A DNA stretch of 22,255 nt from a virus (lineage: Duplodnaviria; Heunggongvirae; Uroviricota; Caudoviricetes): the IMG/VR virus record IMGVR_UViG_2648501165_000011, one strand, 5' to 3'. The notes under the pieces were generated by a model, which saw only the letters and a list, made by a program, of their open reading frames with translations, did no database searches and was not told the DNA's origin. Position 1 is the first letter of the stretch. Each line of letters begins with the position of its first letter. This document shows, piece by piece, positions 6,213 to 17,139 of this stretch. The position numbers were made by a program, and so were the translations under genes.

Positions 6213-7013
6213 TTAACCGCGCTTCGCCTTCTGCGTCGCGGTGGTTTTTCGTGTTGCAGGCTTCCGCGTTGTCTTTTTACTTTTGCTGCTTTCGTCCTGC
6301 GCCTGCGGTGTGCTGGCGTCTTCTGGTGCGGCTGCGGAATCGGCTTTTTTCAGGGCGCGGGAAAGGGTTGCAATCTCGCGTTTCACACCTGAGTTCGGGT
6401 TCAGGTGCATCGCTTCGCGCAGCAGCTTCAGTGATGAGGCCATGCTGTCTGCATCGGTCAGGCCACGACGGGCAAAGGCACACGCCTTGCATAATTTGGC
6501 GCGCACTTCGTCCGGCATGTCCTGGTTGGCAACAATTTCCCAAAGTGTGTCCAGTGGTTCGATAAAGGCGGATAAATCCGCGTCGGCATCCGTCCCGGCC
6601 TGCGTCAGTACCGGGTTGCAGATTTCTTCGGTCAGTACCGTGGCAGCAGTACGTCCAAAGTTATCCGGCATGATGAGGTTGTGACGGACCACATATGCAC
6701 CAATACGCAGCGCCAGCGGAAGATCGCCGCAGTCAATCGCCCACACCATCAGCGTGGCAATCACTTCATCCTGCTGCCCGCCGTCAGCCTCCAGCGTTCC
6801 CTCAATCCAGCCGGAAAAGTCCGGCAATAACTCTTTTTTGATGGCGGCTTTCGCGCTTCTGGCCTGTACGCCCTTAAGTCGGGCCTGTGCCAGACGCAGA
6901 CGATACAGCACCTCTTCATGCGCGGTACGCGCGGCGTGGTCCACGCCTTCATTCGCCCGGCCTGCGCGCTGTGCCATCACGTTCTGCCAGTGTTGCTGTG
7001 CAGGAGTAATCAT
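6213..7013 (-). CDS. M: Terminase small (endonuclease) subunit (P2 gpM-like)
   Basis: 266 aa; MITPAQQHW..., KKELLPDF, MPDEVRAKL, GVKREI match the gpM family from memory; basic Lys/Thr/Arg-rich C-terminal tail. Confidence 0.85.
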   Translation of the reverse strand: MITPAQQHWQNVMAQRAGRANEGVDHAARTAHEEVLYRLRLAQARLKGVQARSAKAAIKKELLPDFSGWIEGTLEADGGQQDEVIATLMVWAIDCGDLPLALRIGAYVVRHNLIMPDNFGRTAATVLTEEICNPVLTQAGTDADADLSAFIEPLDTLWEIVANQDMPDEVRAKLCKACAFARRGLTDADSMASSLKLLREAMHLNPNSGVKREIATLSRALKKADSAAAPEDASTPQAQDESSKSKKTTRKPATRKTTATQKAKRG

Positions 7014-7058: not shown

Positions 7059-8111
7059 TTAGCTGTCGGCGAACTTCAGGCCAGTGACCATCGCGCACTT
7101 GCCATAGTCTTCAACGACATAAGCGTCATTGATGGACTGGTAGGTGGCGATGCGGTTGTATTCCGGCTCGTCTTTCATCAGGCGACGCATTGTTCCTTTC
7201 TGCCAGTAAATCGACAGGTTGTTGAACGAGGTGATCAGCATCGTTGAATCCGGGAAGAACGGCGCAAGGAATACATCCAGTCCGCCAATGGCGCGCGATG
7301 ACAGGATGAGCTGTCCGGCAAGTAATTCCGCATTGGGATTCTGGCCGCTGATGCTGTTCAGCACGGGCAGACGCAGCGAGTTAAACAGGTTGCGCCCCAT
7401 AATCACCACGAGGTCGTCAGCTTCCTTGTGCCATTCATCCAGCAGGGATGAGCGCGCGTCCTGTACCAGTGCATCAGCGTTCGCATACTTACCCGCGTGC
7501 GCCACGGTGTTGTCCATGTTGCGGGAGGTCAGCGTCACGTCATTCATTACGCGCTCGCTGGCGTCGGTTCTGATGTGCTCCAGCCATCCCACGTTAACGT
7601 CCTGAAGCAGCTTGTTGGTGCTGAAGTTGGACTCATCTGCGTGAGACGTGCCGTTGAAACCGATCATGATGCGGTCAAGCGCCACCTGCCGGGCAATCTG
7701 TGTGCTGACGCGTGACTGAAAATCAGGGTGTGCCGCCCAGGCATCAAGCTGCGGATACGAAATAAACGTGTCGTAGTTCACCTGTTCGCACTGATATTTG
7801 CGGTTTTTCAGATCAACCACGTTATTCGGGTTACGGCGTTTTGTGCCGTCATAACTGGTATTCGTGCGCGCAATCGGCCCGGTGGTGTCCAGGAGGATTT
7901 TTTCGCCTTTCTGGTCGGTCACACCGAACACGTTAATTTTTTTTGTAAATTCAGTGCTCTCCTTTACTGCGTTTTCAAAACGCTGCTGCACCGAGGGTTC
8001 CACGGTAAATCGCGATACCAGTGCAGATACCGGGATGTTGTTAAGCGACGCCTGCTGCGCCATATAGCAACCCAGCTTGTTGCGGGTAATATCTGACATC
8101 ACCAGATTCAT
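7059..8111 (-). CDS. N: Major capsid protein (P2 gpN-like)
   Basis: 350 aa; FTVEPSV, GFNGT, LLQDVNVGWL, DLVVIMGR, MLITSFNNLSIYWQ, YVVEDYG are family hallmarks; ATG 8111 with GGAG upstream (alternative ATG 8099). Confidence 0.9.
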   Translation of the reverse strand: MNLVMSDITRNKLGCYMAQQASLNNIPVSALVSRFTVEPSVQQRFENAVKESTEFTKKINVFGVTDQKGEKILLDTTGPIARTNTSYDGTKRRNPNNVVDLKNRKYQCEQVNYDTFISYPQLDAWAAHPDFQSRVSTQIARQVALDRIMIGFNGTSHADESNFSTNKLLQDVNVGWLEHIRTDASERVMNDVTLTSRNMDNTVAHAGKYANADALVQDARSSLLDEWHKEADDLVVIMGRNLFNSLRLPVLNSISGQNPNAELLAGQLILSSRAIGGLDVFLAPFFPDSTMLITSFNNLSIYWQKGTMRRLMKDEPEYNRIATYQSINDAYVVEDYGKCAMVTGLKFADS

Positions 8112-8134: not shown

Positions 8135-8971
8135 TCAGAAGTCAGCCAGTTGATCGGAGGCTGCGCCCGTTGCGGTGAACCGGTTCTGCGGATCGCCGTC
8201 CTGCGTGCGCAGTTTTTCCTTCAGTGCTGTCAGCTCTGTGGTCAGTAAAGTGATTTTCTGGCTGTCCTGCTGATGGCGGGTTTCCAGCGCATTAAAACGG
8301 TCGATAATGTCGGCCTGTGACGTTGCGACACCTTCCACCGCTTCCTGAATACGGGAGAAACTGGCGTCATCCGCTTTGCGGCCACGGCCAATAATCCCCA
8401 TAACGCGGTTAAACCACTGGGTGCCTTCTTCCTGACGTTGTTCGGTGAGTTCGATAAGTTCTGACTCCATAGCGGCGGTAAACATCGCCACGTCTCCCTG
8501 CTGACAGTTGAATGTCATCAGTTGCATACGTTGTTGTGCCGCAAAGGCCAGACGTTCCGTGCCCAGGCTGGCAGGGGTGTCGGTCATTGCCAGCCCGCGC
8601 AGGTAAGGGCCTCCCGTGATGGTTGACTGTGGTTCCAGCTCAATACTGGAGTAAATTTTTTTACCATCGTTAAGCAGGGACATCATGCGAGCGGTCGGCT
8701 CAATTTCGGCATACAGTGCCGTGCGGCCTGCCAGCGGGCCATCGGTTATGTCTTCGGCGCTCAACCCCACAACATCGCCCATAGCGGAAAACTCGCTACC
8801 GGGGAGTGGTGACAGGATGTGCTCAATATTCACACGTGCACCATAAACGGACGGGTTATAACTGGTGGCGGCAGCTTTCAGCATGTCGCCGTTGATTTCG
8901 CGCCCGTCTGCCGTTACACCGGAGACAGCCACGCGAAACTTTTTGCGGGATGTCTTTTTTTCATTAGCCAT
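8135..8971 (-). CDS. O: Capsid scaffolding protein (P2 gpO-like)
   Basis: ORF 8135..9004; likely start ATG 8971 (MANEKKTSRKKFRVAVSG...) with GAGGGG upstream. VTDTPASLGTE and the coiled-coil C-terminus resemble gpO. Confidence 0.85.
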   Translation of the reverse strand: MANEKKTSRKKFRVAVSGVTADGREINGDMLKAAATSYNPSVYGARVNIEHILSPLPGSEFSAMGDVVGLSAEDITDGPLAGRTALYAEIEPTARMMSLLNDGKKIYSSIELEPQSTITGGPYLRGLAMTDTPASLGTERLAFAAQQRMQLMTFNCQQGDVAMFTAAMESELIELTEQRQEEGTQWFNRVMGIIGRGRKADDASFSRIQEAVEGVATSQADIIDRFNALETRHQQDSQKITLLTTELTALKEKLRTQDGDPQNRFTATGAASDQLADF

Positions 8972-9125
8972 AGTTTTTGCCCCTCTGACTGGTTCTTCAG
9001 TCATGATGGCAAAGCGTAACAGGCTGATACAAAGGGCTTTTGTTGTAAGAAAACGGCCAGAACAGGGGGTTAAGGAGAACAGTTTCGCGCGCGGGTAATC
9101 TTCCTGTAATTACTCAGGGGGAGCA
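8972..9125. promoter_or_regulatory. Divergent late-promoter region between O (minus) and P (plus); contains dyad TACAA-N10-TTGTA at 9028..9047
   Basis: 154-bp intergenic spacer between divergent late operons, as in P2, where Ogr-dependent promoters lie here. The exact TGT-N12-ACA consensus was not found, so promoter placement is inferred. Confidence 0.45.
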
Positions 9126-10877
9126 ATGATTCAGGACGCTTTTGTGCGCCAGCGTGCGCGGCAACTTTACTGGCAGGGTTATCCGCCCGCAGAAATATCA
9201 CGTCTGATGGGAATAAACCCGAACACGATTTATGCGTGGAAAAAACGCGACCAGTGGGATGAAACGCCACCCGTGCAGCGTGTCACGCAGTCCATCGATG
9301 CGCGCCTCATCCAGCTCACTGAAAAACAGAATAAAACAGGTGGTGACTTCAAGGAAATAGACCTGCTGACCCGGCAGCTTAAAAAACTGCATGATGGCCA
9401 GCCGGATGCGACGGCCACAGGAAAGAAAGGCCGGGCGAAAAAGCTTAAAAATCATTTCACGCCGGAACAGATTGCCGCACTGCGGGAAAAAATCATCAGC
9501 AGGCTGGAGTGGCATCAGCGGGGCTGGTTTGACTCCCTGACCCTTTGCAGGGAAGCAGGGATACGTAACAGGATGATCCTGAAATCCCGACAGATTGGGG
9601 CGACCTGGTATTTTGCACAGGAAGCGCTGCTGATGGCGCTGCGTGACGATGTGGCGCAACCTTACCAGCGTAACCAGATTTTTTTGTCTGCGTCGCGTCG
9701 TCAGGCGTTCCAGTTTAAAAGCATTATTCAGAAGGCCGCGGCTGAAGTTGATGTGGAGTTGAAAGGGGGCGATAAAATCATCCTCTCCAACGGCGCAGAG
9801 CTGCATTTTCTCGGCACTTCTGCTGCGTCGGCACAGTCCTATACGGGCAATTTTTATTTTGATGAATTTTTCTGGGTCAGTCGCTTTGCTGAACTGCGCA
9901 AGGTGGCTGGCGCTATGGCAACCCTCAGCGGACTGCGGCGCACCTACTTCTCCACGCCATCCACCGAAACGCACGAGGCATACGCCTACTGGAACGGCGA
10001 CCGCTGGAACGAGAAAAAGGCCACGCATAAACGCCAGCGTTTTTCTGTGGACTGGAAAACGCTGCATAACGGGCTTATCTGCCCTGACCGGACGTGGCGG
10101 CAAATTGTCACGCTGGAAGATGTGGTTAATCACGGCTGGAAACACACCGATATCGACGAAATTCGTGATGAAAACACCGAAGACGAGTTCCTCAATCTCT
10201 ATATGTGTGAGTTTGTCCGCGAAGGGGAATCGGCATTTAACCTGAATATCCTGATTGGCTGCGGTGTTGACGGATACGACGACTGGAAAGACTGGAAACC
10301 TTTTGCTCCCCGCCCGATGGGGAATCGTCCGGTATGGATTGGGTATGACGCAAACGGCAGCAGTGGCAACGGCGACAGCGGCGCTGTGTCCGTGGTGGTT
10401 CCTCCGTCTGTTCCTGGTGGCCGTTTTCGAACGGTGGAGACGCGACGCGTTCAGGGGCTGGAGTTTGAAGAACAGGCCAGAGTCATTGAAGAGTTCACGT
10501 GTCGCTACAACGTGGAACACATCGGCATTGATGTGACGGGCGGGAACGGGGAGGCTGTTTATCAGATAGTGAAACGGTTTTTCCCTGCCGCTATTCCGTA
10601 CACCTTCACGCTGTCATCAAAACGGTCGCTGGTACTGAAAATGCTGCAAATAATGCGTGCCGGGCGGTGGGAATACGATCGCGCCGAACGCGAGCTGGTC
10701 GCGGCCTTTAACGCCGTGCGTAAGGTGAAAACACCGGGCGGCTTTATCACTTACGAAACGGACCGCGCGAGGGGGATCAGCCACGGCGACCTTGCGTGGG
10801 CAACCATGCTTGCTGTCATTAACGAACCAATTGGCGGCGAAGGAGAAAACGAGCGTTTCACGGTTATGGAGTTCTGA
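9126..10877 (+). CDS. P: Terminase large (ATPase) subunit (P2 gpP-like)
   Basis: 583 aa; HTH-like N-terminus (ISRLMGINPNTIYAWKKR), ATPase core (LKSRQIGATWYFAQEAL, FYFDEFFWV) and C-terminal nuclease region. GGGGG RBS before ATG 9126; stop overlaps the Q start. Confidence 0.9.
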   Translation: MIQDAFVRQRARQLYWQGYPPAEISRLMGINPNTIYAWKKRDQWDETPPVQRVTQSIDARLIQLTEKQNKTGGDFKEIDLLTRQLKKLHDGQPDATATGKKGRAKKLKNHFTPEQIAALREKIISRLEWHQRGWFDSLTLCREAGIRNRMILKSRQIGATWYFAQEALLMALRDDVAQPYQRNQIFLSASRRQAFQFKSIIQKAAAEVDVELKGGDKIILSNGAELHFLGTSAASAQSYTGNFYFDEFFWVSRFAELRKVAGAMATLSGLRRTYFSTPSTETHEAYAYWNGDRWNEKKATHKRQRFSVDWKTLHNGLICPDRTWRQIVTLEDVVNHGWKHTDIDEIRDENTEDEFLNLYMCEFVREGESAFNLNILIGCGVDGYDDWKDWKPFAPRPMGNRPVWIGYDANGSSGNGDSGAVSVVVPPSVPGGRFRTVETRRVQGLEFEEQARVIEEFTCRYNVEHIGIDVTGGNGEAVYQIVKRFFPAAIPYTFTLSSKRSLVLKMLQIMRAGRWEYDRAERELVAAFNAVRKVKTPGGFITYETDRARGISHGDLAWATMLAVINEPIGGEGENERFTVMEF

Positions 10878-11923
10878 TGAGCAGAAAAAATAAAAAAGTG
10901 CGCATGAGTTCACGCATTGATCTCGCTGATGCGCTCAGGAAAGAATCATCGCTCAGTGCATTCACATTTGATGGTCCTTATCGCCTGACCGGGCATGACC
11001 TGCTGGACAATATGTACTGTGCTGATAACGGGCGGTGGTATGAAACCCCGGTGGACTGGTACGGTCTGGCAAGAGCTGCCCGGCAAACGTCCTGGCATCA
11101 GTCTGCGCTTTACTTTAAGCGCAATGTATTGCTCGGTTGCTATATTCCACACCCGCTGCTTTCCCGGCAGGATTTCTCGGCGCTGGCGCTGGACTGGTTT
11201 GTGTTCGGTAACGCATTCCTTGAGCTTCGAAGCAATATGCTCGGCGAACCGCTTAAATTACGGCACGCCCTGGCGAAATACATGCGACGCGGAAGCGATC
11301 TTGAATCATGGTGGTATGTGCAGGATGGTAAGGACGCGTTTCAGTTTCGCCCTGGCAAAGTGTGCCACCTGATGAATCCAGATATTAACCAGGAAATCTA
11401 CGGCATGCCGGAATATCTCGGCGCATTACTCTCGGCCAGCCTGTCTCATTCGGCGGACATGTTCAGAAAACTGTATTACGACAACGGATCCCACGCCGGG
11501 TGCATCATCTACATCGGTGCAGCGCAGGTAAACCGCGAAAGCATGGACTCCCTGAAAGAAACGTTACAGGGGGCACGTGGTGGTGGTGCGTTTAAAAACG
11601 TGCTCATTCATGCGCCCAACGGGGGCAAAGAGGGGGTGCAAATTTTGCCGTTCCAGCAGATCACCGCAAAGGATGAATTCATGAATGTTAAGGCGGCATC
11701 CCGTGATGATGTGCTGGCTGCGCACCGCGTTCCGCCGCAACTGATGGGGGCGATGCCGGGTGAAAAAAGTGCGTTTGGTGATGTGGAGAAGGCCGCGCGG
11801 GTTTACGCAATTAACGAGCTGATGCCAGTCATGGAGGCCATGAAGCACATCAATGACTGGCTTGGCGAAGAGGTTATCCGTTTTAACCCTTACGCACTGT
11901 TAGACACCCAGCCCACATCCTGA
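10877..11923 (+). CDS. Q: Portal (capsid vertex) protein (P2 gpQ-like)
   Basis: 348-aa ORF translationally coupled to P (TGATG overlap); content fits the gpQ portal family; last gene before the cos-proximal spacer. Confidence 0.9.
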   Translation: MSRKNKKVRMSSRIDLADALRKESSLSAFTFDGPYRLTGHDLLDNMYCADNGRWYETPVDWYGLARAARQTSWHQSALYFKRNVLLGCYIPHPLLSRQDFSALALDWFVFGNAFLELRSNMLGEPLKLRHALAKYMRRGSDLESWWYVQDGKDAFQFRPGKVCHLMNPDINQEIYGMPEYLGALLSASLSHSADMFRKLYYDNGSHAGCIIYIGAAQVNRESMDSLKETLQGARGGGAFKNVLIHAPNGGKEGVQILPFQQITAKDEFMNVKAASRDDVLAAHRVPPQLMGAMPGEKSAFGDVEKAARVYAINELMPVMEAMKHINDWLGEEVIRFNPYALLDTQPTS

Positions 11924-11950
11924 CGCGCTTCGCTTGTCTGCTGCTTCGCC

Positions 11951-11973
11951 GGGGCATAAAAAATTTATGCCCC
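11951..11973. terminator. Perfect stem-loop GGGGCATAAA-aaa-TTTATGCCCC just after the Q stop (no T-tract)
   Basis: 10-bp perfect inverted repeat read directly from the sequence; no flanking U-run, so it may be a packaging/cos-associated or RNA-stability structure rather than an intrinsic terminator. Confidence 0.4.
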
Positions 11974-12250
11974 GACTCTCCAGCTCCTGTATCAGTCAGA
12001 TAATTTCACGACGCCTTCCAATTTATCGCCACCATCGACGGTCAGACTCTTACGCAATCCCACCGCGTTGACTGCATGTTCTCGCCGCCTCAGTGCGATT
12101 TTGACGGCCTTACCTTTCACCCCATCAAATCAGAATCCCTCACGTATTTTTCACGCTCAGCGTGAGAAATACGGCCATTCTGTCGTGTCGCTGCGACATT
12201 GTTAAGGGAACGCTATTTACCCCCTGAAACGCGGGCTGTTCCCCCGTCAC
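11974..12250. other. Expected location of cos (packaging) site; exact cohesive-end sequence not identified
   Basis: In P2 the cos site lies just beyond the 3' end of Q. I could not match the remembered P2 cohesive-end sequence, so this is positional inference only. Confidence 0.25.
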
Positions 12251-12277
12251 CTGCGCGCAGAAAAAGCGCGTTTTTTT
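12251..12277 (+). terminator. Intrinsic-terminator-like element: short GC stem (CGCGC-agaaaaa-GCGCG) followed by T7
   Basis: Read directly from the sequence; would stop plus-strand read-through from P-Q. The stem is short (5 bp), so confidence is moderate. Confidence 0.45.
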
Positions 12278-12348
12278 GTGCATGCACGGATCCTTGACGG
12301 ATCCAGCCGCCACGGGGGCCGGAAGGGCAAAAAGTCGTTCAAAAAAAT

Positions 12349-12375
12349 TGTGCAAATTTGTGCACTATTGTGCAG
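12349..12375. repeat. Three direct repeats of TTGTGCA at exact 10-bp phasing
   Basis: attgtgcaaa / tttgtgcact / attgtgcagc at 12349, 12359 and 12369; helical-turn phasing suggests a protein-binding array. Confidence 0.5.
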
Positions 12376-12401
12376 CAGGGCGATGCGCGATTATCGCCCT
12401 G
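12376..12401. repeat. Palindrome CAGGGCGAT-N8-ATCGCCCTG just downstream of the Ea22-like gene stop
   Basis: Perfect 9-bp arms; shares its core (CAGGGCG/CGCCCTG) with the palindrome at 12977..12994 on the other side of the gene. Confidence 0.5.
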
Positions 12402-12414
12402 GTTTGAGAGGAAA

Positions 12415-12939
12415 TCAGGTGTTCTTTTTACCTTCTGTCAGTGGGCATAACCATCCACTATTTACATCACTTAGCTGATGCGTTCTTTCCTCGTGCTTCT
12501 CCTGCCACAATGCTTTTCCGCCAGCCTTTATGATGGCTCTTTCAACATCCCGCTCGTATCGCAAGGGCTGAAATACGTTATTAATGAAATATTCGCTTAT
12601 GTCCGGAAGCAATACTGCAAAATTATTGGTTTGTTGCGCCGTTCGGCTATGCAGCAAAGCGGCATACTTTAATGCGTCCTGTGCTTTCTGGAATTTCAGT
12701 GCATGCTCAGTGGCGATTTTTTCCAGTTCAGCGATCCTGTTGTCTTTGGTTTCCAGCTCTTCCAGCAGCTCGGCGATAATGTCCATTTCCTGATGACGGA
12801 TTTGACGCTTAAACGCCGCCACTGCTTCGCTACAATCCTGCTCAGCATTTGGGTTATCCGTGGTGGCCTCATACCACGCCAGCGTCGATTGATAGTTTTG
12901 TGCCGCCTCACGTAATGCCTGATAGTTGATTTCGCTCAT
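12415..12939 (-). CDS. Ead/Ea22-like family protein (unknown function), accessory cargo gene
   Basis: 174-aa ORF with AAGGAGA RBS 7 nt before ATG 12939. N-terminus MSEINYQALREAAQ... and coiled-coil segment ELLEELETKDNRIAELEKIA resemble the Ead/Ea22-like proteins of E. coli prophages as I remember them; C-terminal half has no recognisable motif. Confidence 0.5.
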   Translation of the reverse strand: MSEINYQALREAAQNYQSTLAWYEATTDNPNAEQDCSEAVAAFKRQIRHQEMDIIAELLEELETKDNRIAELEKIATEHALKFQKAQDALKYAALLHSRTAQQTNNFAVLLPDISEYFINNVFQPLRYERDVERAIIKAGGKALWQEKHEERTHQLSDVNSGWLCPLTEGKKNT

Positions 12940-13002: not shown

Positions 13003-13314
13003 TTATTCAGGAAATAACGCCCGGATATTTCCGGCCATCTGACTGGTTATCTGTGCGGTTGGTGCTGGCTGTGACACGGGGCGTTCTGTCCTGGTTTGTG
13101 TCAGGGATAACGCTTCATCGTCAGCCCATGCAGCCAGTCGGTAAGCCTCTGCCGGATTAATTTTCATAAGTGCCAGTCCGGCCAGAAAAGCCACACGTTG
13201 ACCACTTTTGCGGGCTTCTGGTGTAAGGCTGTCCAGCCAGGCGCATGCTTCGCCTTCGTTCTTGACGGCGGCGGGCTTCAGATAGAAACTTATCCGTCTG
13301 GTTGGTGTCGTCAT
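13003..13314 (-). CDS. parR: ParR/StbB-like centromere-binding adaptor (ribbon-helix-helix), type II partition
   Basis: ORF 13003..13449; from ATG 13314 the product MTTPTRRISFYLKPAAVKNEGEACAWLDSLTPEARKSGQRVAFLAGLALMK...NIRALFPE parallels plasmid R1 ParR as remembered (RRTIAFKLNPDVNQ...LDSIPQGERSRLNRAALTAGLALYR...ILRSLFPKE). Immediately downstream of parM. Confidence 0.7.
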   Translation of the reverse strand: MTTPTRRISFYLKPAAVKNEGEACAWLDSLTPEARKSGQRVAFLAGLALMKINPAEAYRLAAWADDEALSLTQTRTERPVSQPAPTAQITSQMAGNIRALFPE

Positions 13315-13318
13315 TGGT

Positions 13319-14278
13319 TTACTCCTTGTCCATTGCGTACAGCCCATTAACCAGAGCAAACTGTGGCACCCCGTCCGCGATGAAAGTCGCATTAACTCCG
13401 CAGGCTTCGCGGATAGCGGGTGCCACAATCTCCGCCCCGCCACCGACAACCATCACCCGCCCGTAACCCGAAAAACCCGCCAGCGCGCGGATCACGCGTT
13501 GTTTCAGTGTTTCTTCCTTTTCACGAATAACCGCCATCAGGCTGTCGTAATGCGCGTCATTGTGGATGTGCTGGCGCAGCCAGGCTTCATTATGGCGATG
13601 TTCGATAATGGTATTGGCGATGTGGTGACTGGTACGCATACCGTTAGTGGCCATCACCGACAGTACGGCATCGGCCATCAGGGAAACGCCTACGTGTGGA
13701 TCGCAAAACACCTGGCTGATACCTGCCAGTTGTCCCTGAACCTTTGCCACATCCAGCGTGGTTCCGCCTAAATCCACAATCAGCAGGGATTCAAACGGAC
13801 TCATGTCAGCCAGTGCTTTAAAACCAGCCGGAATGGATTCAGGCATAACCCGTACGTTACGGATAGTGAATGCTTTTCCGTTCTGGTACGCCACCGGGCG
13901 CATGACGTTTGCTTTTTTGCGGTTGATGTTGGCCATGTCCGGCTGTGCGTTTGTGTCGAAATATTCGCTCAGTGGCAGGGTGACAACCACATCCACTTCC
14001 TGTGGTGTGATGCCTGATTTGACCAGCGCGTGATGAATGGCAATGACATTCACATCGCTGTACTGGTATTGCGTGTCGGTCGTCTGGACAAAGCGATCGC
14101 TGACCGGATCAAAACCATAGCGCACGCCATCAAGCATGTAGTTCGCGGGCTGCGTGCCACCGAACGGCGCAGACCATTCCGACTTGAAGCTGTTCGGGCT
14201 GATGGCGTTGCGGCGTTCGCCGTTCTCAGTCCATGCCAGCTTGATGTTGGTGGAGCCGTCATCGATACAAATTTTCAT
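13319..14278 (-). CDS. parM: ParM/StbA-like actin-type segregation ATPase
   Basis: 319 aa; MKICIDDGSTNIKLAW, ISPNSFK, YQYSDVNVIAIHHAL, VMPESIPAG, LIVDLGGTTLD, SGYGRVMVVGGGAE, LVNGLY track plasmid R1 ParM almost motif for motif (actin-fold phosphate-1, connect and adenosine motifs). AAGGAAAA RBS before ATG 14278. Confidence 0.85.
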   Translation of the reverse strand: MKICIDDGSTNIKLAWTENGERRNAISPNSFKSEWSAPFGGTQPANYMLDGVRYGFDPVSDRFVQTTDTQYQYSDVNVIAIHHALVKSGITPQEVDVVVTLPLSEYFDTNAQPDMANINRKKANVMRPVAYQNGKAFTIRNVRVMPESIPAGFKALADMSPFESLLIVDLGGTTLDVAKVQGQLAGISQVFCDPHVGVSLMADAVLSVMATNGMRTSHHIANTIIEHRHNEAWLRQHIHNDAHYDSLMAVIREKEETLKQRVIRALAGFSGYGRVMVVGGGAEIVAPAIREACGVNATFIADGVPQFALVNGLYAMDKE

Positions 14279-14304: not shown

Positions 14305-14420
14305 AATCGTTTACGGGATTCTGAAATCCCGTTTTTGCCTGTTTTATGCGCGCTTCATATATCGCGGCGCGTTTTTTGCTCATTTACGGGATTTGTGAAT
14401 CCCGTTTCTGTCTGTTTTTT
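14305..14420. promoter_or_regulatory. parC-like centromere/operator: two 20-bp palindromes ACGGGATT-N4-AATCCCGT 73 bp apart (centre to centre), each followed by a conserved TTT(T/C)TG(C/T)CTGTTTT tail, flanking an AT-rich promoter-like core
   Basis: Sites at 14313..14332 and 14386..14405 read directly; position immediately upstream of parM matches the parC-parM-parR organisation of type II partition loci. Confidence 0.55.
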
Positions 14421-14794
14421 GTTTCCACTGGTCAGGCCACCCCGCAGCAGGTCTGCTTTGCGGCGGGCGCGTTCAGTGGTTTCACTGATTCTCTGTGCGT
14501 GCTCTGCGTCGCGGATGGCGCGCAGCATGTCAGAAAGCACGGTAACGGGTGTTTTCATGGTGTTCTGGTCTTGCTGAAGTGTGGATGCCAGGCGTGCGGC
14601 GGCTTCGGGGTCTGATGCCCCCAGCTGTTCCAGATAGCTGGCGACCGGGTTATGGCGGATCTCCGTGCTGCTTACGCCGTGGTTACGGCTCAGGCGCTGC
14701 CAGAGCTGCGTGATTCGGCTGTCCGGGCGGGTATCCGGTTTGCGTACAATTTCAAATCCCTGCGGTGCAATGATGCTGCCGTCAACGTACAGGC
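14355..14794 (-). CDS. ORF of unknown function whose 5' end lies in the assembly gap (could be a separate gene or the frame-shifted C-terminus of gpA)
   Basis: Open frame reads from the N-run to a stop at 14355. Translated segment (...EIVRKPDTRPDSRITQLWQRLSRNHGVSSTEIRHNPVASYLEQLGASDPEAAARLA...) is protein-like, but its C-terminal 20 codons run through the parC palindrome, so its true extent is uncertain. Confidence 0.3.
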
Positions 14795-14828
14795 NNNNNN
14801 NNNNNNNNNNNNNNNNNNNNNNNNNNNN
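14795..14828. other. Run of 34 N (assembly or scaffold gap of unknown true length)
   Basis: Directly visible in the sequence. Confidence 0.99.
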
Positions 14829-17139
14829 ATTCTTTAGCGAGTAATTCGTGGTTATCAGGCAAAGGCCGCTGCTGTTTGCGGCTCTGTGTCCAGCTCTGCA
14901 TTTCATCACTGCTGTTTTTTGCCTGTTTGTCACGAAGCGAACGCATCAGCGCCCGGCGTTCGTGCCGTTTCAGTGAGCGCATCCATTCGTTCACTTCAAC
15001 GCCGTCAGGGAGCTGCGGCCACGGTGCTGGCCGTTCTTCCGGCTGTTCTGTCCCGTTGTTGTCCGTTTCCTGTACACGGGGACAGTTATTGCCACGAGTC
15101 CAAGGGGCGGCAGGGCCGCCCTGAAGGTCAAAACCATTTTCGCGGGCGCTGTCTTCCGTTTCCGGTTTACGTCTTACCAGTTTCCAGTTATCCGGATGCG
15201 TGCACACACGGGAGGATTCCCCGATGAGTGGTGACCAGATCCCGTAAATCTGTACGCTCTGTTCGCCGTAATCATTCAGCTCATCTGCGAGGTCGTAGGC
15301 GGTGCGAATCAGGTAGTCTTTGCGTGGAACAAGTACGCCGCCCTGTTTTTCAATGTAGGTGGCAAAACACCCGGCATCGGCGGCAGCGAGTACCGCATCC
15401 ATTGCGTCATCTTTCAGTCGTTGCGGGCCTTCCGGGTTGCGTGCCATCTGGCTGGCAAGGCGGCGCAGTTCACGCCACACCTGACGGGAGGGGATGCCAA
15501 AGAACTGGAACTGGCGGACCCGATGAAGGCGCGCCCAGCCGATGGCGCGCTCCACACTCTCGACCATTGATTTTCCGGTTTCGTGGTCAACGCGTGGCTT
15601 GCCCGTTTTCGGGTCGATGCCATCCACGGCGCGGCTGTCCAGGTTCTTTCCGATGTAGGTCGCGATATAGCTGGTTGGTGTGCCTTTTGAGCCGTCGACA
15701 TACTCCGCCTTAAAGCGCGGAGTAATATCATTGCCCAGCTCGTGGCGGTCTTCCTGAATGGCAATATCGCGGGTGATGGCCACGATGCTGTCGATTTCTT
15801 CCGGATGAGCAAAGACCATCATATGCCAGTGCACGGTGCCGTCATGGTGAGGCTCCACCGTGCGGATGCCATACCAGCGAAGACCGTCGCGGTTCAGTTT
15901 TTTGCGGACCGCCGCAAAAAACGTGTTAACCAGGTAATCACTGGAGTCGCGCATGGTGGACCCGTTCCATTTGGGGTTCGGATGACCGTTCTCTGTTGTG
16001 GCGTGGTATTTTGACGGGCAGGTGACAGTCAGAAACACCGCTTTGTCGCCACGGGCTTCGGCCAGAAGTTCCAGCCCCTTCATGGTGGCCATCATTTCTG
16101 CCTTACGGTGAACCGGGTTACTTACTCCCGCGTAATACACCGTCTCGAGATCAAACGTGAACCCGTCTTCATTTTCCAGCATGAAACTTTTCAGGAAATC
16201 GCGTGTTTTCTCGCGCTGTGCGCGAAACTCGCTTAACGCGTCCTGGCTCAGATAGGGCGATGTTTTTCTGGAAACCAGACAGGCGGCGCGGAGTTGTTCT
16301 TCTCTCCACTCGCAACGTAACAGCCACAGTTTGCGTTTCCACCATTCTGCACAGGTCAGGCGAAGGATTGCGCCCGGCAGCAGCTCCGTGTCCGGTTCGT
16401 TCCTCCGGTCTTTGTCTGTTGTCAGTGCGTCATAATGTGGAGGCATGGCGTGCAGGTGTAACGCCATGCGGGCCAGCATCTGATACGCCTTCAGCGTTAC
16501 ATCCATGGTCAGTTCGCCATCGGTCGCGCCAAAGCCATCGCAGAGTTTTTCGAAGGTGCTGCTGAACATCGCCGCCGTCATGGTGGCCAGTGTCTGTATC
16601 TGGTGTTTGTTGAGCTGCGGCAGGTAAAGCAAATCGTCCAAGCGTTCGCGTCCGGCAAGGGAGCGATAACCCTGTGTCAGCCAGCGGTGATCGGTGCGCT
16701 CCAGACGTTCGAATATTTTGCGCAGGTTTCCGCGCGCGTAGCGTTCAGCCTGCCAGCTCTTTTTGCCTTTCTGACGATCGGCTTCCTGTTTTTTGCGCAG
16801 GAAGGAGAGGTGGCGAATAAGCGGATCGCGCAGATAGGACGGCAGCAGGCGCAGCGAGGCCATGGCTTCATCCACCGCGCCGCGTGCCTGTTTTCTGGCA
16901 TCTCCTGCCAGTGTGATGGTTTTGTCCTGTTTTTCCTGTGCGTCCAGGCTTTTATTAATCAGGTTGCCCAGCGGCGTTGCGGAGAACGCCGCATCAGCCA
17001 TTTCCTGGCGGTGCTCGTTCTCTACCCGGTAGGCATCCAGCCAGGAGGAAAGCGCGGATTCAGGAGCGGGGATCCCCGTTCCTTCACGCCCCACTGCGTG
17101 GCGCGGTTGTTGCCAGTCCCTGATGTACTCTGCCGTCAT
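14829..17139 (-). CDS. A: Replication initiation endonuclease (P2 gpA-like, HUH rolling-circle nickase); 3' end interrupted by the N-gap
   Basis: About 770 aa before the gap; HUH-type motif EPHHDGTVHWHMMVF and Tyr-rich active-site region GTPTSYIATYIGKN, typical of P2 gpA-family proteins; ATG 17139. Confidence 0.85.

Follow-up and report, generated by a model that had tools for sequence, protein, structure and literature searches.

The three TTGTGCA heptamers located between the portal gene and the cargo gene of this P88-like prophage appear, from sequence comparison, to be the P88-type version of a family-wide distal cos element, in which an RTGCA motif occurs as an inverted proximal pair and as three direct distal half-sites one helical turn apart. 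We put the probability at roughly three in four that the array forms the outer portion of an extended cos (packaging) site whose RTGCA half-sites are recognised by terminase, and the array would most likely serve as a terminase recognition element working like cosB of phage lambda. The DNA analysed here, referred to as the window, is a stretch of 22,255 nucleotides that blastn identified as a P88-like (genus Xuanwuvirus) P2-family prophage in the orientation opposite to that of the standard P2 map; its relevant genes and sites are listed in Table 1. At 14795-14828, where the reading frame of replication gene A approaches its 3' end, the window has 34 N (masked or unresolved bases).

Table 1. 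Genes and proposed cos module parts in the window; + and - give the strand, and offsets with a plus sign are counted from the cos end towards the cargo side.
Feature	Position	Strand	Remarks
Small terminase gpM (Phage_term_smal)	6213..7013	-	Pfam PF05944, E = 1e-36; candidate reader
Capsid	7059-8111	-	
Scaffold	8135-9004	-	
Large terminase gpP	9126..10877	+	Pfam Terminase_5, HTH_23, Terminase_6N, Terminase_6C; N-terminal Terminase_5/HTH at aa 6-63; candidate GTGCA reader
Portal	10877-11923	+	followed by the intergenic region with cos and the array
Left flank of cos	12215..12232	+	ATTTACCCCCTGAAACGC; kept in P88-like relatives; bounds on the left the 160-bp module that a satellite also carries
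Probable cohesive-end sequence (cosN), 19 nt	12233..12251	-	+ strand GGGCTGTTCCCCCGTCACC, reverse complement GGTGACGGGGGAACAGCCC
GC block, short hairpin and T7 run	12252..12277	+	CTGCGCGC, GCGCGC/GCGCG; terminator-like match 12253-12271
Proximal recognition element (candidate)	12276..12287	+	TTGTGCATGCAC; inverted pair of directly adjoining GTGCA half-sites; TGCA cores at +28/+32
Spacer, fixed in length, variable in sequence	12288..12340	.	GGATCC...GGATCC repeat; G-rich block 12311-12335 in this lineage
A7 tract	12341..12347	+	directly 5' of the array; 'AAaaaa' conserved in the set-B alignment
Distal recognition element (candidate)	12348..12374	+	TTGTGCA x3, TGCA cores at +100/+110/+120; right limit of the cos module
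TTGTGCA copies	12348-12354, 12358-12364, 12368-12374	+	start-to-start spacing exactly 10 bp
Cargo gene, Ead/Ea22-like	12415-12939	-	Pfam PF13935, E = 1e-14; adjoins the array
ParR-like (Plasmid_stab_B)	13003-13314	-	0.6 kb from the array
ParM	13319-14278	-	PF06406/PF21523
Replication protein A	14782-17139	-	

A sequence-only reading had described the array as three identical heptamers at an exact 10-bp spacing, which is correct, although the coordinates it gave (12349-12375) were shifted by +1. The lone TTGTGCA heptamer is not enriched, with 7 matches in the window against 6.0 expected; the phased triple matches once in the window and was absent from all 100 dinucleotide-preserving shuffles, even with three mismatches allowed. 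A fourth copy of the heptamer at 12276-12282 lies 72 bp upstream of the first array copy and overlaps the palindrome GTGCATGCAC (12278-12287). A function as cargo promoter was considered and rejected, as no sigma-70-like site occurs within the array on either strand and the orientation of the cargo varies among relatives, and inspection of the array sequence by eye showed that neither the P2 late-promoter pattern TGT-N12-ACA nor CRP-like half-sites fit. No match to Rfam covariance models was obtained for the region 11900-12600 at E values up to 1.

The cos site was placed by comparison with characterised members of the P2 family and is probably located at 12233-12251. The reverse complement of this block is identical to P2 cos, GGCGAGGCGGGGAAAGCAC, at 13 of 19 positions in the same orientation relative to the portal gene, fits the P2-family cohesive-end pattern GGyGwGGCGGGG and would place cos 310 bp past the portal stop; cos sequences of RSA1, Smp131 and AP3 resemble it as well (PMC5694545, PMC3931495, PMC5247547). 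A different location was suggested by the linear record NC_049391 (NC_049391.1, Xuanwuvirus P88_4B11, our loci L003/L004), as its deposited ends correspond to the junction between window positions 12329 and 12330, inside the spacer that separates the proximal and distal elements. A cos at 12311-12329 derived from these ends was dropped, since the G-rich block found there is missing in the set-B (P88/T5282H-type) lineages L140, L161 and L173. The block at 12233-12251 was preferred because it is almost invariant among 21 representatives (≤90% identity), because it matches the family pattern in the right orientation and because it puts all five TGCA cores at the positions seen in P2, P4, 186 and RSA1. 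The ends of NC_049391 reflect either an arbitrary linearisation or a cut site that has shifted in this genus, and if they were the true termini the geometry would differ, with the array still 18 bp from the end. The 12311-12329 block itself repeats part of the cos-like block in inverted orientation (CCCCCGT / ACGGGGG).

Comparison of the window cos region to P2, 186 and P4 by blastn showed no homology, and the kinship emerged only from motif positions. These were taken as the starts of TGCA cores and counted from the cos end towards the cargo side, which corresponds to the P2 right arm. The window cores at +28, +32, +100, +110 and +120 are matched by cores at +26, +98, +108 and +120 in P2, at +26, +32, +98, +108 and +117/121 in 186, at +26, +32, +98, +108 and +121 in P4, at +26, +32, +98, +108 and +117 in PSP3, and at +26, +32, +97, +107 and +126 in RSA1 of Ralstonia. 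To extend this comparison, 117 loci with the exact P2/P4 cohesive end were fetched and their +33 to +95 spacers were sorted into 54 classes of less than 60% identity (set A). Against a background of 0.45% per position, a TGCA start was found at +24 to +29 in 91% of the 54 classes (100% in set B), at +30 to +34 in 78%, at +96 to +101 in 81% and at +106 to +111 in 80%; the third distal site, at +115 to +123 in 61% of the classes, is less strictly placed in P2-type elements. On average 4.33 TGCA were present per sequence within +1 to +130 versus 0.13 across 200 nt of the portal flank. For most P2 relatives blastn identity to P2 ends at +29, and therefore the distal motif has been kept by selection on the motif and its position rather than through inherited identity of the flank. 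At the proximal element the base that precedes TGCA is A in 98 of 98 set-A (P2/P4-type) sequences and G in 99 of 99 set-B sequences; taking all sites together, it is A in essentially all P2/P4-type elements and G in all those of P88/T5282H type, and this ATGCA versus GTGCA difference runs in step with the two cohesive-end sequences. Many set-A spacers (for example those of P4, 186, PSP3 and L294), though not all, also carry, at about +45 to +70, a palindrome GCGCCAG-N3-CTGGCGC that is absent from P2 and may be an optional extra cos element.

Among P88-type elements, alignment of the 21 representatives (≤90% identity) showed only three conserved blocks, namely GGGCTGTTCCCCCGTCACCTGCGCGC, TTTTTTGTGCA and AAAAAATTGTGCAaatTTGTGCAc..TTGTGCA, and the heptamer columns are conserved in 23–28 of 28 unique arrays, with 3-nt spacers that vary. 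An offset of 65 nt separates the proximal GTGCA from the array in 130 of the 131 anchor-selected loci, at spacer identities that fall to about 50–60%, and the proximal palindrome lies 72 bp from the distal site, centre to centre, as it does in P2. Such constancy of length combined with freedom of sequence points to bending or wrapping of the DNA. The terminator-like neighbour (12251-12277) described in the sequence-only reading is a real hairpin followed by a T-run; comparison with P2, 186 and P4 identified it as the positional counterpart of the P2 hairpin CGCCCGCttcaCGGGGCG and its TTTT, and it lies in a block of about 55 bp common to P2, P4 and 186, which we take to be the cos core of the literature. 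Set B retains the CTGCGCGC block and the T-run but not the hairpin.

Transcription could also account for some of these parts, if the array were an insulator or terminator that stops cargo transcripts before they reach cos. Repeats 1 and 2 on the - strand form a hairpin, GTGCAcaaattTGCAC, followed by a T7 run (a weak terminator-like match at 12365-12350), the A-tract that supplies this run is conserved in set B, and no T-run follows the cargo hairpin at 12376-12401; however, the stem of 5 bp just reaches the minimum of the scan, and the third repeat and the strict 10-bp phasing are left over. Arrays of the P2/P4/186 type have no adjoining T-run, the array persists next to cargo of either orientation (that of Chuche is on the other strand), and neither the fixed distance to cos nor the matching proximal half-sites would be accounted for, which makes a terminator function quite improbable.

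The search for the same array near cos of other P2-like genomes, as proposed in the sequence-only reading, was positive and its outcome much wider than expected. The 27-mer pattern was found at no fewer than 120 loci in viral contigs, and about 110 of the matches listed were P2-like; among these the array was always downstream of the portal gene in the same orientation, 370–430 bp past its stop, or about 1000 bp where an insertion is present. A second search was anchored on the portal side (CACCTGCGCGC...TTTTGTGCA) and so avoided selection on the array itself. The 136 anchor-positive loci included 94 with a perfect array, 29 with one mismatch, a few with degenerate arrays (L156, L159) and three with ten mismatches, among them L146 and L167. 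In the latter two an 82-bp deletion fuses the proximal TTTTTGTGCAC to the second distal repeat, with loss of the spacer and the first repeat and retention of the cos-like 19-mer. The deletion has the appearance of a microhomology recombination event between half-sites, and it may point to prophages that are defective in packaging. The 160-bp module with the array was present in 1106 of 5426 complete E. coli genomes (~20%).

On the cargo side the conservation ends abruptly. In 16 phage records blastn homology begins near window position 12100 and extends as far as 12374, where the third heptamer ends. In the anchor-positive loci the 40 nt beyond it fall into 21 unrelated classes, and the cargo of other relatives at the same place is unrelated. 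The palindrome at 12376-12401 is a real hairpin with 9-bp arms, as had been noted, but the array is tied functionally neither to this palindrome nor to the cargo gene; both belong to a replaceable cassette that starts right after the third heptamer. This can alternatively be interpreted as a recombination site through which the cassette of the cargo (defence) hotspot is exchanged, with the homology break as the crossover point. The start of the hotspot at the very base after the third heptamer, with its 21 flank classes, and the L146/L167 deletion, which runs from the proximal GTGCAC to its second distal copy, agree with such a role, and Rousset et al. noted that the hotspot abuts cos and speculated on recombination there (PMC9122126). 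In P4, in contrast, the array is on the psu side of cos and the variable gop/beta/cII genes are on the other side, and therefore the array is not tied to the hotspot. No dedicated recombinase accompanies the array, and an equally sharp boundary would arise if purifying selection acted on cos up to its last functional base; exchange of the cassette at the array is accordingly considered very improbable as its function. The boundary provides an exact sequence anchor for the cos-proximal defence hotspot of P2-like prophages, with the third heptamer as its first boundary base in the P88-like lineage.

Satellites provided a natural deletion experiment on the proposed extended cos site. P4 has been reported to share only the cos region with P2 (PMC9594776, PMC9122126), and set A, which comprises 87 phages and 21 P4-like satellites, showed that both kinds of element keep the array. 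At the set-B loci L110 and L125 the portal side of cos holds neither a portal nor a terminase gene, and blastn matched these loci to the window only over 12215-12374/5 (160 bp, 81%), besides the integrase gene of L125 and one 36-bp match. The complete element, L299 (NZ_CP033635.1, about 1332100-1344700), forms a 12.5-kb island adjoining tRNA-Arg; among 5426 complete E. coli genomes, 57 carry it. It codes for a P4-type integrase, an Icd-like protein, a toprim primase, an ogr/Delta-like activator, a P2-family major capsid protein (423–470 aa, with an N-terminal extension) next to a 236-aa protein, and MazEF, together with a P88-type cos carrying the TTGTGCA array; portal, terminase and tail genes as well as Sid and Psu were not found in it. 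L299 therefore looks like a capsid-encoding P4-like satellite of P88-type helpers. A satellite without terminase must borrow that of a P88-type phage, and this would explain why exactly the stretch from 18 nt before cos (-18) through the third TTGTGCA is kept.

Two site types other than packaging had also been proposed for the array. An operator of repressor C is unlikely, since some 8 kb lie between the array and the immunity region and since satellites with other regulators share the array. The other would be a parC-type centromere, in which the repeats would be iterons bound cooperatively by the nearby ParR and acting with ParM. Known parC sites are short phased direct repeats, which the array resembles in that its repeats are about one helical turn apart, and the window encodes ParM and a ParR-like protein in a nearby parMR operon. 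Partition systems are moreover carried at this locus by about a quarter of P2-like phages (PMC9122126). Nevertheless, an entire lineage (portal 69–78% identical, protein A about 33%) has an identical array and no ParM or ParR within 5–12 kb, several P88-like loci with the array also lack parMR, and orthologous arrays are present in P2, 186, P4, PSP3 and RSA1. The array is locked to cos, whereas parR, beyond unrelated cargo, is anywhere from 86 to 1920 bp away, and the array is located downstream of parR beyond the cargo gene instead of directly upstream of parM. That position is occupied by two palindromes, ACGGGATTnnnnAATCCCGT, at 14313-14332 and 14386-14405 (- strand; 20 bp each, ACGGGATT(TCAG/CACA)AATCCCGT, 73 bp apart), which are likely to be the parC/ParR operator of the phage ParMR system. 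A centromere function of the array is hence scarcely credible, and of the site types originally suggested it is the packaging site, proposed from a one-face array near cos, that the comparison favours.

If the array is part of cos, it could still be read by a host DNA-bending or nucleoid protein, as IHF reads I1 of lambda, rather than by terminase. The A-tract and the helical phasing suggest bent DNA and the phiCTX record annotates an IHF site near cos, but no IHF consensus (WATCAANNNNTTR) was detected at ≤1 mismatch in 12215-12374, which also speaks against IHF as the binder named in the sequence-only reading. The switch between ATGCA and GTGCA follows phage lineage and cos type within one host species, E. 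coli, and the same ATGCA code is used in Ralstonia. A switch that tracks phage lineage within E. coli argues for a phage-encoded reader, and a host protein in this role is regarded as unlikely.

Under the preferred reading, the site would be composed, from the portal side, of the 19-nt cohesive end, the GC block and T-run, the proximal GTGCA pair, the spacer of fixed length, the A-tract and the three phased GTGCA. The terminase holoenzyme would recognise the RTGCA half-sites, with gpM (the small subunit), the N-terminal HTH domain of gpP (the large subunit) or both as the reader, and several subunits may bind the phased triple cooperatively along one face of the DNA. Bending or wrapping of the DNA across the spacer would allow proximal and distal sites to act jointly in placing the nuclease on cosN, and the array would then be required for packaging. 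Diverged set-B lineages that keep an identical array were compared segment by segment to the window proteins, and identity was 80–83% for the N-terminal 70 aa of gpP (Terminase_5/HTH), about 76% for the rest of gpP, about 70% for the portal, about 58% for the gpM N-terminus and about 49% for the capsid. This N-terminal conservation gives a hint that the HTH of the large subunit could be the reader. A structure search with gpM returned no solved homolog.

The proposed element can be compared to several known packaging sites. P1 pac consists of TGATCR hexamer clusters on both sides of the cut and operates in headful packaging under Dam-methylation control. By analogy, a cluster of short motifs around a 4-bp palindrome may define the packaging site in both cases, but the window motifs are all on one side of cos, and to our knowledge TGCA is not a methylation target in E. 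coli. Lambda cosB is made up of the sites R3-I1-R2-R1, of which the 16-bp R sites are bound by gpNu1, together with IHF. The likeness to the window consists of a series of short repeats that occupy about 100 bp to one side of the nicking site and would presumably anchor terminase and bend the DNA; the differences are that the window half-sites are 5–7 bp long around a TGCA palindrome, show no sequence similarity to the R sites and lack an IHF consensus, and that the small terminase is of the P2 gpM type with no Nu1-family match. A further difference is that P2 and P4 package from monomeric circles (PMC2231350).

The closest relatives of the site are those of P2, P4 and 186, where cos likewise lies between portal gene Q and the right-arm accessory locus, has a homologous cohesive end and is followed in the same order by a GC hairpin and T-run, a palindromic RTGCA pair at +26/+32 and a distal triple at equal distance. 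The window differs from them at 6 of 19 cohesive-end positions, in its half-site (GTGCA versus ATGCA) and in a strict 10/10-bp spacing where the others have 10 and then 9–13 bp. In phiCTX, another P2-family phage, the record NC_003278 (L296, 35200-35580) annotates repeats R3-R6, with R4-R6 across cos, and right-arm TTTCTGC(A/G) repeats occur near +25/+34 and again around +80 to +110. Its half-site CTGCR, other spacing, 21-nt cohesive end and annotated IHF site about 300 bp away set it apart from the window, and this suggests a third half-site variant of the same architecture.

A 55-bp conserved cos core attributed to Ziermann & Calendar 1990 is cited in several papers (PMC9594776, PMC3931495, PMC5694545) and also appears in PMC2231350 and PMC5247547. 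The window array lies outside this published core. What these five papers say of cos in describing the core contains no mention of the distal triple (PMC2231350, PMC3931495, PMC5247547, PMC5694545, PMC9594776), which may already have been delimited in Ziermann & Calendar 1990; the P2/P4 cosmid papers contain no cos deletion map and the phiSM/P88 paper no cos data. Accessory terminase sites beside cosN are well known, while the P2-family architecture and its GTGCA variant appear to be undescribed. P2 cosmids with longer cos flanks were transduced about 1e4 to 5e4 times better, with no cause given (PMC9594776). If the present reading is true, the functional P2/P4 cos would be a module of about 160 bp (-18 to +123) and not the 55-bp core. 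This would matter for the P2/P4 cosmids and transducing particles that are engineered for antimicrobial delivery, whose yields differ by orders of magnitude depending on how long the cos fragment is (PMC9594776), and ATGCA versus GTGCA in combination with cos type would be a simple marker to predict satellite-helper packaging pairs.

Taken further, these results allow a tentative joint interpretation, which we consider possible at rather less than even odds. The P2-family cos would be tripartite (cosN, proximal palindrome and distal phased triple), with the 65-bp spacer as a sequence-independent ruler, and the RTGCA half-site (ATGCA or GTGCA, with CTGCR in phiCTX) would be a packaging specificity code that is read by an unusual N-terminal HTH of gpP and sorts helpers and satellites into compatibility groups. 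P88-type helpers would accordingly have their own, previously unrecognised, capsid-encoding P4-like GTGCA satellites.

An inverted repeat, CGTATTTTTCACGCT/AGCGTGAGAAATACG, with 15-nt arms and a 1-nt loop was also observed at 12143-12173, 60–90 nt on the portal side of cos; it is kept in P88-like phages and lies outside the 160 bp common to phage and satellite.
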